Shown: positions 16,993-21,587 of the stretch, in pieces
Layout of the letters: each line of letters begins with the position of its first letter
How positions within the stretch are numbered: the stretch's first letter is position 1
NCBI RefSeq assembly: GCF_003334255.1
Contig: NZ_QOWU01000023.1
DNA: 64,000 nt
Direction: 5' to 3' (one strand)
Source of the DNA: Escherichia coli
GTDB lineage: Bacteria > Pseudomonadota > Gammaproteobacteria > Enterobacterales > Enterobacteriaceae
Translations under genes and position numbers: made by a program
Notes under the pieces: generated by a model
Told to the model about the DNA's origin: nothing
What the model saw: only the letters and a program-made list of their open reading frames with translations
Databases searched by the model: none

Positions 16993-19668
16993 ATGGCTGT
17001 TACTAATGTCGCTGAACTTAACGCACTCGTAGAGCGTGTAAAAAAAGCCCAGCGTGAATATGCCAGTTTCACTCAAGAGCAAGTAGACAAAATCTTCCGC
17101 GCCGCCGCTCTGGCTGCTGCAGATGCTCGAATCCCACTCGCGAAAATGGCCGTTGCCGAATCCGGCATGGGTATCGTCGAAGATAAAGTGATCAAAAACC
17201 ACTTTGCTTCTGAATATATCTACAACGCCTATAAAGATGAAAAAACCTGTGGTGTTCTGTCTGAAGACGACACTTTTGGTACCATCACTATCGCTGAACC
17301 AATCGGTATTATTTGCGGTATCGTTCCGACCACTAACCCGACTTCAACTGCTATCTTCAAATCGCTGATCAGTCTGAAGACCCGTAACGCCATTATCTTC
17401 TCCCCGCACCCGCGTGCAAAAGATGCCACCAACAAAGCGGCTGATATCGTTCTGCAGGCTGCTATCGCTGCCGGTGCTCCGAAAGATCTGATCGGCTGGA
17501 TCGATCAACCTTCTGTTGAACTGTCTAACGCACTGATGCACCACCCAGACATCAACCTGATCCTCGCGACTGGTGGTCCGGGCATGGTTAAAGCCGCATA
17601 CAGCTCCGGTAAACCAGCTATCGGTGTAGGCGCGGGCAACACTCCAGTTGTTATCGATGAAACTGCTGATATCAAACGTGCAGTTGCATCTGTACTGATG
17701 TCCAAAACCTTCGACAACGGCGTAATCTGTGCTTCTGAACAGTCTGTTGTTGTTGTTGACTCTGTTTATGACGCTGTACGTGAACGTTTTGCAACCCACG
17801 GCGGCTATCTGTTGCAGGGTAAAGAGCTGAAAGCTGTTCAGGATGTTATCCTGAAAAACGGTGCGCTGAACGCGGCTATCGTTGGTCAGCCAGCCTATAA
17901 AATTGCTGAACTGGCAGGCTTCTCTGTACCAGAAAACACCAAGATTCTGATCGGTGAAGTGACCGTTGTTGATGAAAGCGAACCGTTCGCACATGAAAAA
18001 CTGTCCCCGACTCTGGCAATGTACCGCGCTAAAGATTTCGAAGACGCGGTAGAAAAAGCAGAGAAACTGGTTGCTATGGGCGGTATCGGTCATACCTCTT
18101 GCCTGTACACTGACCAGGATAACCAACCGGCTCGCGTTTCTTACTTCGGTCAGAAAATGAAAACGGCGCGTATCCTGATTAACACCCCAGCGTCTCAGGG
18201 TGGTATCGGTGACCTGTATAACTTCAAACTCGCACCTTCCCTGACTCTGGGTTGTGGTTCTTGGGGTGGTAACTCCATCTCTGAAAACGTTGGTCCGAAA
18301 CACCTGATCAACAAGAAAACCGTTGCTAAGCGAGCTGAAAACATGTTGTGGCACAAACTTCCGAAATCTATCTACTTCCGCCGTGGCTCCCTGCCAATCG
18401 CGCTGGATGAAGTGATTACTGATGGCCACAAACGTGCGCTCATCGTGACTGACCGCTTCCTGTTCAACAATGGTTATGCTGATCAGATCACTTCCGTACT
18501 GAAAGCAGCAGGCGTTGAAACTGAAGTCTTCTTCGAAGTAGAAGCGGACCCGACCCTGAGCATCGTTCGTAAAGGTGCAGAACTGGCAAACTCCTTCAAA
18601 CCAGACGTGATTATCGCGCTGGGTGGTGGTTCCCCGATGGACGCCGCGAAGATCATGTGGGTTATGTACGAACATCCGGAAACTCACTTCGAAGAGCTGG
18701 CGCTGCGCTTTATGGATATCCGTAAACGTATCTACAAGTTCCCGAAAATGGGCGTGAAAGCGAAAATGATCGCTGTCACCACCACTTCTGGTACAGGTTC
18801 TGAAGTCACTCCGTTTGCGGTTGTAACTGACGACGCTACTGGTCAGAAATATCCGCTGGCAGACTATGCGCTGACTCCGGATATGGCGATTGTCGACGCC
18901 AACCTGGTTATGGACATGCCGAAGTCCCTGTGTGCTTTCGGTGGTCTGGACGCAGTAACTCACGCCATGGAAGCTTATGTTTCTGTACTGGCATCTGAGT
19001 TCTCTGATGGTCAGGCTCTGCAGGCACTGAAACTGCTGAAAGAATATCTGCCAGCGTCCTACCACGAAGGGTCTAAAAATCCGGTAGCGCGTGAACGTGT
19101 TCACAGTGCAGCGACTATCGCGGGTATCGCGTTTGCGAACGCCTTCCTGGGTGTATGTCACTCAATGGCGCACAAACTGGGTTCCCAGTTCCATATTCCG
19201 CACGGTCTGGCAAACGCCCTGCTGATTTGTAACGTTATTCGCTACAATGCGAACGACAACCCGACCAAGCAGACTGCATTCAGCCAGTATGACCGTCCGC
19301 AGGCTCGCCGTCGTTATGCTGAAATTGCCGACCACTTGGGTCTGAGCGCACCGGGCGACCGTACTGCTGCTAAGATCGAGAAACTGCTGGCATGGCTGGA
19401 AACGCTGAAAGCTGAACTGGGTATTCCGAAATCTATCCGTGAAGCTGGCGTTCAGGAAGCAGACTTCCTGGCGAACGTGGATAAACTGTCTGAAGATGCA
19501 TTCGATGACCAGTGCACCGGCGCTAACCCGCGTTACCCGCTGATCTCCGAGCTGAAACAGATTCTGCTGGATACCTACTACGGTCGTGATTATGTAGAAG
19601 GTGAAACTGCAGCGAAGAAAGAAGCTGCTCCGGCTAAAGCTGAGAAAAAAGCGAAAAAATCCGCTTAA
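16993..19668 (+). CDS. adhE: Bifunctional acetaldehyde-CoA/alcohol dehydrogenase
   Basis: 891-aa ORF starting [23 protein letters not shown]..., with an aldehyde dehydrogenase N-half and iron alcohol dehydrogenase C-half. Confidence 0.97.
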
Positions 19669-19791
19669 TCAGTAGCGCTGTCTGGCAACATAAACGGCCC
19701 CTTCTGGGCAATGCCGATCAGTTAAGGATTAGTTGACCGATCCTTAAACTGAGGCACTATAACGGCTTCCACAACAGGGAGCCGTTTTCTT

Positions 19792-20688
19792 ATGCCACTT
19801 CTCAATGATCTGCTCGATTTCAGTGACCATCCGCTTATGCCTCCGCCCTCTGCACAACTATTTGCAGAACACCTTCCCACCGAGTGGATACAACACTGCC
19901 TGACGCTTTCTGCTCATGCGACCGTTCGCCGCCGTCGTTTACCGGGGGACATGGTTATCTGGATGGTGGTGCAATGAGCCAATTACCGATGTTGTTCGCC
20001 GTCTGAACCTGAGCGCGGATGGCGAAGCGGGGATGAACCTGCTGGCCCGCAGCGCTGTCACCCAGGCGCGTCAGCGCGTGGGGGCCGCCCCAGTGGAATG
20101 GCTCTTCCGCCAGACCGCACAGACAGGGGCGCGGAACGTTACCTGAAGGATGACTGGCACGGCCTGCAACTTTTTGCCATTGATGGCGCACAGTTCAGGA
20201 CACCTGATAAACCCGAGCTGCGTGAATATTATGGGTCTGCCAACACATCCACTAAGCGGCAGAACGCCTACCCGGTTATGCGTCTGGTGGCCTTAATGAA
20301 CCTGGGAAGTCACATTCTGCTGAATGCCGTGACCGCACCTTACCGGCAGAGCGAAACTGTGCTGGCCCACTCCATGCTCGCCACCATCCCGGATAACTCT
20401 ATTACGTTGTTTGATAAACTTTTTTACAGCGAAGACCTGCTGCTGACGCTGAACCAGAAGGGTTGTAACCGCCACTGGCTACTGCCTGCGTGGAAGAATA
20501 TCGCATCAGAAATGATAGAGCTGGGAAACACGGCGTCACCAGGGACCATCCCGAAACGACTGGAGCATCTTCGGGGTGCTCTGGAAGTGGTGTTCATAAC
20601 AAAACGCCCCCGACCATCAAGGCCGAGGTCGGTTAAGATATCAAAAACCCGTTATCCTGTGAAACATAGTGCCGCTCCTCTTAAGTGA
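19792..20688 (+). pseudogene. insZ: IS4-family transposase remnant (insZ/ychG-like), frameshifted
   Basis: Three overlapping ORFs in different frames (19792-19977, 19916-20146, 20098-20688) together resemble one IS4-type transposase; no intact gene or paired terminal repeats are evident. Confidence 0.65.
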
Positions 20689-20969
20689 ACGGCATTGCCC
20701 TTCTGGGGCCGTATTTTTTGTTTACCCAAAGCAACTTTTCCATAAACCGACAGCATTAGCCTTCATCATATTTGCGACGATGTATAACGCCTAAACACAG
20801 GGATATTGTACTTTACAGGTCACAAGTCAACGTCGGTGCTTAAGAGCCCTGTGAGGCGTATAGCGGCGTTAAAAAACTGCCGAGAAGGGTATATAGCCCG
20901 GAAGAAGTGCGTAAAACGAACTGACAGGATAAAAGTGCCCTGCTCACCCTGTCAGTAAAGAAATTCTTA

Positions 20970-21587
20970 TTAATCGTGGCGATGCCTTTCCTGAATAGCC
21001 GTTAATGAGTCGACTTGTAACGCCTCTTTATAGTGTTTACGGCATACAGAAACGTATCGTTCATTACCACCAATTACCACCTGCTCACCTTCGTTATAAG
21101 GTCTGCCTGCTTGATCAAGACGCAGCACCATGCTTGCTTTACGGCCACAAAAACAGATGGTTTTTAATTCAACCAGTTTGTCGGACCATGCCAGTAAGTA
21201 TTGGCTGCCAATAAATAATTCACCTCGAAAATCGGTACGTAAACCATAACAAAGTACGGGTATATCGAGTTGATCGACAACCTCCGATAATTCATATACT
21301 TGTTGTCTGGTTAAAAACTGGCATTCATCAACCAGTACGCAATGAATTGCCTGCTGTTCATGTTCCGCACGAATCTCATCAAATAATGATGAATTTTGGT
21401 TAAATAATTTTGCAGGCGATGACAAACCTATACGCGAACTGACTTTCCCGGCACCAAAGCGATCATCAATTTCTGCCGTATATACGACAGTGCGCATGCC
21501 GCGTTCCTGGTAATTGTATGAAGATTGCAACAATGCTGTAGACTTACCCGCATTCATTGCGGAATAGTAGAAATATAGCTGTGCCAT
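20970..21587 (-). CDS. tdk: Thymidine kinase
   Basis: 205-aa ORF starting [20 protein letters not shown] (P-loop); synteny. Confidence 0.92.

Follow-up and report, generated by a model that had tools for sequence, protein, structure and literature searches.

The interval between adhE and tdk of Escherichia coli contains the remains of a transposase gene, and the locus raises the question of what was inserted there and whether the remnant still affects the two genes on either side. The window, by which the whole analysed stretch of 64,000 nucleotides of an E. coli contig (NZ_QOWU01000023.1) is meant, had been given a preliminary description from its letters alone, in which a frameshifted, non-functional IS4-type transposase relic was placed at 19669-20969. 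This assignment agrees with existing records. In a comparison with complete E. coli genomes, window positions 19600-21000 were 100% identical to a K-12-derived genome, in which RefSeq labels the equivalent of 19792-20688 as 'IS4 family transposase, frameshifted', and insZ has been named as a pseudogene between tdk and adhE (PMC3465305). The relic is the E. coli K-12 pseudogene insZ and was already catalogued; as first reported, the feature is an ordinary, annotated insertion-sequence relic and matters little. Its relation to the end of the adhE transcript is of more consequence. We consider it highly probable that insZ is a dead 989-bp copy of an element of the IS4 family, IS4 subgroup, which was inserted in the adhE terminator and now itself supplies the working terminator. 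The genes and the ends of the element are as follows.

16993-19668, plus strand: adhE

20970-21587, minus strand: tdk, convergent with adhE

19709-19726, plus strand: left terminal inverted repeat CAATGCCGATCAGTTAAG, the same as the left end of an intact copy (locus L001, from 1507)

20680-20697, plus strand: right terminal inverted repeat CTTAAGTGAACGGCATTG, the same as the right end of the intact copy

19722-19747, plus strand: subterminal palindrome TTAAGGAT-N10-ATCCTTAA, within the left end of the element

The relic does lie inside the interval first given, but the true element covers only 19709-20697 (989 bp); positions 20698-20969 are native intergenic DNA, which empty-site strains possess as well. 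The preliminary description recognized no paired inverted repeats at the ends. However, CAATGCCGATCAGTTAAG and CTTAAGTGAACGGCATTG pair at 16 of 18 positions, and an exact 10-bp direct repeat, CCCTTCTGGG, abuts both ends of the element at 19699-19708 and 20698-20707 and represents the target duplication. The IS4 subgroup has the end consensus -AATR--------WTW and target duplications of 10-13 bp (PMC2266710). The left repeat carries AATG at its positions 2-5 and TTA at positions 14-16, and the duplication of the insZ relic, at 10 bp, falls within that range; five other copies of the insZ-type relative are flanked by duplications of 10-11 bp. On either side of the subterminal palindrome, the left end has a GATC site for Dam methylation (19716-19719 and 19740-19743). 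In IS10 and IS50, Dam sites couple transposition to replication.

The intact relative is 1430 bp long, encodes a transposase of 445 residues and occurs on E. coli plasmids and chromosomes; an example is NZ_CP062837 33003-34432 (locus L001 1507-2936) with protein WP_029488891.1. The protein contains the domain Nterm_IS4 at residues 21-112 (E 2e-30) and the Pfam domain DDE_Tnp_1 at residues 129-356 (E 5e-22), and it scored 263 bits against NCBIfam model NF033592, for which the cut-off is 115 bits. A single-ORF DDE transposase with these two domains is as described for the IS4 family (PMC2266710). Of 5426 complete E. coli genomes, only 162 contained the relative at a coverage of at least 80%. A search for a specific IS name, by way of ISEc13 and a cluster look-up, returned only 'IS4 family transposase'. 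Other damaged copies were seen as well. A copy downstream of silE in ATCC 8739, ETEC H10407 and others (L008, L009, L012 301-1729) is 1429 bp long and annotated as frameshifted, so several near-full-length copies of the insZ-type element are also dead. A second insZ-type relic, 93% identical, frameshifted and differently deleted, lies near nanM in a 5.44-Mb E. coli strain (L019 1501-2247). The nanM relic also had a match in an O157:H7 genome, and in the O157:H7 genomes among the matches listed the adhE site is empty.

With the ends preserved, it may be asked whether the relic is still mobile as a non-autonomous element that is mobilised in trans by the intact relative or by InsG of IS4. K-12 carries one copy of IS4. 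Both terminal repeats are the same as those of the intact copy, and the first 35 nt of the left end (19709-19743) match true IS4 (L014 319-353) at 33 positions. Against this, a query spanning the 423-bp deletion junction of the relic matched about one place per genome, and its 1863 records agree with the 1884 genomes that carry the relic at adhE; this argues against a spread of the relic and gives no sign of extra copies. The relic-type and IS4 transposases are only 39% identical, and the right ends of the two elements, much less alike than the left ends, match at only 15 of 18 terminal positions. Continued mobility is therefore improbable. The near identity of the left ends despite such divergent transposases suggests that either the binding site in the left end is strongly constrained or the two elements have exchanged ends.

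The transposase gene was described beforehand as three overlapping ORF pieces, and these (19792-19977, 19916-20146 and 20098-20688) are indeed consecutive parts of one IS4-family transposase. ORF3 matched NF033592 with 82.5 bits (E 3e-23) and ORF2 with 30 bits (E 3e-7), both below the cut-off, and ORF1 aligned to residues 1-59 of the intact relative. That the pieces are frameshifted was correct, but they occupy two frames only, in the order 1, 2, 1. Alignment to the intact 1430-bp relative gave the following pieces.

19792-19970, plus strand: piece 1, residues 1-59, frame 1; ends at a 17-bp deletion between 19970 and 19971

19971-20125, plus strand: piece 2, residues 67-117, frame 2; ends at a 1-bp deletion after 20125

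20126-20504, plus strand: piece 3, residues 119-243, frame 1, with D137 and D214 kept; ends at a 423-bp deletion

20505-20688, plus strand: piece 4, residues 386-445 and the stop codon, frame 1

Taken together, the losses of 17 bp and 1 bp restore the frame, and the 423-bp deletion, at about 20504, is itself in frame. The latter removes approximately residues 244-385, including Y311, R314, E318 and K325. The insZ gene is dead because this deletion takes both the catalytic glutamate and the YREK motif, and no intact transposase gene is left in the element, as had been stated. The family signature Y-(2)-R-(3)-E-(6)-K (PMC2266710) is present in the intact relative and missing from the copy in the window, which is thus the descendant of a family member and not a functional member. 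Its length of 989 bp likewise falls short of the 1400-1650 bp given for the group (PMC2266710) owing to the deletions, whereas the intact relative has 1430 bp. The parts common to the relic and the intact copy are 92-98% identical, about 93% overall, with a dN/dS of 0.14; most of this divergence therefore predates the insertion.

The last of the ORFs, 20098-20688, is still open over 196 residues and has kept D137 and D214. Together with the low dN/dS between relic and intact copy, this could be taken as a sign that the truncated transposase has been domesticated for a host function, such as regulation by DNA binding or inhibition of transposition. Such a role is very improbable. The low dN/dS is expected if the divergence mostly predates the insertion, and in strain C311 an additional 4-bp insertion breaks this ORF. 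The Nterm_IS4 region (residues 21-112) falls in other frames, the active site is otherwise deleted, and the 3' end described below, at 19790, lies upstream of the ORFs.

The state of the locus before the insertion can be read from strains in which the site is empty, as it is in 2204 of the 5426 complete genomes; the view that the relic marks an old insertion site is supported by this number. The empty-site allele (L003) reads aaACGGCCCCttctGGGGCCGTatttttt; caatataaACGGCCCCttctGGGGCCGTattttttg. With a single substitution as the only difference, it corresponds to the two flanks in the window fused at one copy of the 10-bp repeat. The allele folds into a hairpin with an 8-bp stem and a 4-nt loop (-18.2 kcal/mol, z -4.9) that is followed by a U-run and begins 26 nt past the adhE stop codon. 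Judged by its sequence, the hairpin ACGGCCCC-TTCT-GGGGCCGT with its T-run is the native intrinsic terminator of adhE, and the element was inserted in its loop. In the window the terminator is split, and a third structure lies between its halves.

19694-19708, plus strand: left fragment of the split adhE terminator, comprising the left arm ACGGCCCC, TTCT and GGG and including the left copy of CCCTTCTGGG

20698-20719, plus strand: right fragment of the split adhE terminator, comprising the other copy of CCCTTCTGGG, the right arm GGGGCCGT and the T-run (terminator scan)

19761-19791, plus strand: internal terminator, a hairpin AACGGCTTCC-ACAACA-GGGAGCCGTT followed by TTCTT (terminator scan), just before the transposase ATG at 19792

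Both junction hairpins are weakened. The left one, at -9.7 kcal/mol compared with -18.2 kcal/mol in the empty-site allele, lacks a U-run, and the right one is reduced to -11.3 kcal/mol with its U-run kept. The internal hairpin (19761-19786) has a 10-bp stem with 6 G-C pairs and a 6-nt loop, folds at -16.5 kcal/mol (z -5.2) and is followed by a UUUUCUU tail. Its 3' arm includes GGGAG upstream of the transposase ATG. The same hairpin is found in the intact copy, and the leader of true IS4 contains a similarly placed one. A match of the region 19759-19795 to the Rfam family ctRNA_p42d was also obtained, with 33.4 bits compared with a gathering score of 50. An identity as ctRNA_p42d was not accepted for this sub-threshold match, which most likely reflects a general resemblance between structures made of a hairpin and a U-run.

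Published RNA 3' ends were used to decide where adhE transcripts stop. Term-seq of MG1655 by Adams and colleagues in 2021 (PMC7815308, Supplementary file 1) lists a 3' end at 1295324 on the minus strand, which was detected under each of the three growth conditions (scores of about 54,000, 51,000 and 100,000). Its 61-nt context string is identical to window positions 19740-19800. As comparison with the row for the hns terminator set the 3' end at the 51st base of the context string, the end corresponds to window position 19790, within the U-run of the internal hairpin. The 19761-19791 structure accordingly has all the parts of an intrinsic terminator, namely a G+C-rich stem-loop, a U-run directly after it and a 3' end within that run. 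The authors classed the end as 'orphan', as the adhE stop codon is more than 50 nt upstream of it (PMC7815308). Among the rows listed from the Term-seq tables (PMC7815308), the 3' ends at 1294198 and 1295324 are direct neighbours, and none is given for the right junction.

The suggestion that the relic bears on adhE termination is borne out by this 3' end. From their position and strand, the transcripts ending at 19790 would come from adhE, and the end would arise by intrinsic termination rather than by RNA processing. The relic very probably supplies the working adhE terminator in K-12. In our reading, the adhE mRNA of K-12 has a 3' untranslated region of 122 nt, of which the last 82 nt are derived from the element. 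The original role of the internal hairpin was probably to shield the transposase gene from read-in transcription.

The short palindrome TTAAGGAT...ATCCTTAA had been proposed as either the adhE terminator or a relic end. It exists, at 19722-19747, and as a stable hairpin beyond the stop codon of adhE (-13.4 kcal/mol, z -3.4) it has one property of a terminator. However, no U-run follows it and the 3' end at 19790 lies 43 nt further downstream. The palindrome belongs to the subterminal region of the element's left end and is conserved in the intact plasmid copy, which has no adhE nearby, and the empty-site allele reveals a different structure as the native terminator. That the palindrome terminates adhE is hardly credible.

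An influence of the relic on tdk had also been considered possible. The tdk gene has its own terminator outside the element.

20916-20957, minus strand: intrinsic terminator of tdk (fold -20.8 kcal/mol, z -5.5)

The sequence of this terminator is also present in empty-site strains. Term-seq places the 3' end of tdk at MG1655 position 1294198 on the plus strand (PMC7815308), which equals window position 20916; about 220 bp remain between it and the relic. The relic is unlikely to affect tdk.

The distribution of the relic was examined in the same 5426 complete genomes. The insZ-type relic was present in 1884 of them, and 1134 contained a different insertion, a relic of true IS4, at the adhE hairpin. 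The copies of K-12 and of an O26 strain (L018) are both 989 bp long and differ by substitutions only, so they share the same lesions. The possibility that the frameshifts are sequencing errors in a gene that is really intact, for which only the general occurrence of single-base frameshifts in assemblies can be cited, is negligible: at least 1863 independent assemblies share the 423-bp deletion junction (1863 records at 99% identity or more), the whole relic occurs in 1884 complete genomes, K-12 and O26 have equally long copies, RefSeq marks the K-12-type copies as frameshifted, and a loss of 423 bp is impossible as a base-calling error. In some genomes the site was empty although the flanks were 99% identical to those of K-12 over the equivalent of window 19600-21000 (hits H19-H22). 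Presence of the relic thus does not simply track the similarity of the flanks, and either recombination at the locus or an occasional precise loss through the 10-bp repeats is indicated. In NZ_CM136176.1 (1428379-1430845), the adhE-tdk interval with the relic also carries an IS903B-type element.

The IS4 relic is a decayed copy of 1145 bp with the ends TAATGCC...GGCATTA and a 12-bp target duplication, CCCCTTCTGGGG. Its carriers include Nissle and ST131 strains. Like the insZ-type relic, it bears a hairpin before its transposase ATG.

IS4 relic, before the transposase ATG: hairpin and U-run CCGGAAACG...CGTTTCCGGATTTTTTT

In strain fS58a an intact, oppositely oriented IS4 of 1426 bp occupies the adhE hairpin and has the 12-bp duplication of the IS4 relic. 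The adhE hairpin was thus hit at least three independent times by two different elements, which are counted as different because their transposases are only 39% identical.

To describe the target preference, the targets of six independent insZ-type copies and five IS4 copies were reconstructed, which gave eight distinct target sequences. In all eight, the middle of the duplication coincides with the loop of a G+C-rich hairpin, which in most cases lies between an A-run and a T-run. Seven of the eight targets passed a strict test for a centred hairpin (stem of at least 5 bp), compared with only 2.0% of the positions in the window. The insZ-type element and IS4 have two target sequences in common, namely the adhE terminator and the repeated hairpin ACCCCCAGCTAGGCTGGGGGT. 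The latter was hit by an insZ-type element downstream of gnd (L010 271-300 and 1731-1832) and by IS4 downstream of glcA (L016 272-301 and 1728-1829). The gnd and glcA targets share a stretch of about 130 bp (29 bp on the left and 102 bp on the right) that is identical in two unrelated contexts, so the ACCCCCAGCTAGGCTGGGGGT hairpin seems to belong to a sequence that is repeated or mobile. A further pattern, that the copies of the relative always have the same orientation as the upstream gene, was considered and set aside, as most sites lie between convergent genes and the four informative ones, although all co-oriented, are too few.

IS4 is said to follow an old target rule, AAA-N20-TTT, from Mayaux and colleagues; the pattern given here was derived from the sequences and not from that rule. 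IS4-subgroup elements are described as having strong specificity in the target arms (PMC2266710). The preference seen for the insZ-type element and IS4, as estimated from eight distinct target sequences and not from a systematic survey, fits the choice known for the IS4 subgroup, namely short palindromes rich in G+C with A and T runs beside them.

From these results the following course of events is highly probable. In an ancestor of the K-12 lineage, a single transposition placed the element in the loop of the adhE terminator, and the staggered cut duplicated 10 bp. This insertion parted the left arm of the terminator from its right arm and T-run. The copy afterwards lost 17 bp, 1 bp and 423 bp. 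Transcription of adhE would now run 82 nt into the element and stop at the internal hairpin and U-run (19761-19791), a structure that the element probably carries to block read-in transcription. A more general proposal, to which we give somewhat less than even weight, is that IS4-subgroup elements seek out the dyad centre of terminator hairpins with A and T runs on their flanks and bring a replacement terminator in their left end, so that the insertion would be nearly harmless, a 'safe harbour with a spare part'. If this were true, the 3' untranslated region and the terminator of adhE would be derived from insertion sequences in about 56% of the genomes (1884 + 1134 of 5426), and two lineages with different versions would exist, which could give the adhE mRNA a lineage-specific stability or regulation.

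The preliminary interpretation as a whole was right about the nature of the relic, while it missed the ends and misassigned the palindrome. As far as could be found, the splitting of the adhE terminator, the repeated targeting of this site by two IS4-type elements and the take-over of termination by the relic are new. These added details are of modest value and fit the known target choice of the IS4 subgroup. They offer an explanation of an 'orphan' 3' end of MG1655 as a real end of adhE mRNA, and the native adhE terminator is split by one of two IS4-type relics in over half of the surveyed E. coli genomes. The adhE hairpin is a clean natural example of repeated, independent and base-precise insertion. 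The results may be used for annotation of the adhE transcription unit, as a lineage marker and in studies of target choice by IS4-type transposases.

Compared with insZ of K-12, the relic in the window has the same locus and sequence, and there is no difference. The annotation of the K-12-derived genome, however, is limited to what is left of the coding sequence; neither the inverted repeats and target duplication nor the split and internal terminators are recorded there. The intact relative shares about 93% nucleotide identity with the relic and has identical terminal repeats and left-end hairpins, but it retains the complete transposase of 445 residues with the full DDE and YREK motifs. IS4, the founder of the IS4 subgroup with the transposase InsG, and the insZ-type element have a common domain layout, left ends matching at 33 of 35 nt, target duplications of 10-14 bp, a preference for the centres of G+C-rich palindromes with two target sequences in common, and a leader hairpin upstream of the transposase ATG. 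They differ in their transposases (39% identity), in the terminal base (T in IS4 versus C), in length (1426 bp in IS4 versus 1430 bp) and in the right end. The insZ-type element is distinct from IS4 and is not a copy of it.

Insertion of IS4-family elements into palindromic repeats is known, for example for the REP-targeting ISRm22 (PMC1525189), and the target pattern described here is in agreement with it. In contrast to the targets of ISRm22, the palindrome at adhE is not a REP repeat but the working terminator of a single-copy gene. Terminator-like sequences have been reported just upstream of insertion sequences and between the end of an element and its transposase gene (bioRxiv 10.1101/2025.07.22.666184). 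Compared with the terminator-carrying insertion sequences of that preprint, direct 3'-end data are available for the adhE locus, and they point to the element's own terminator taking over from that of the host gene.
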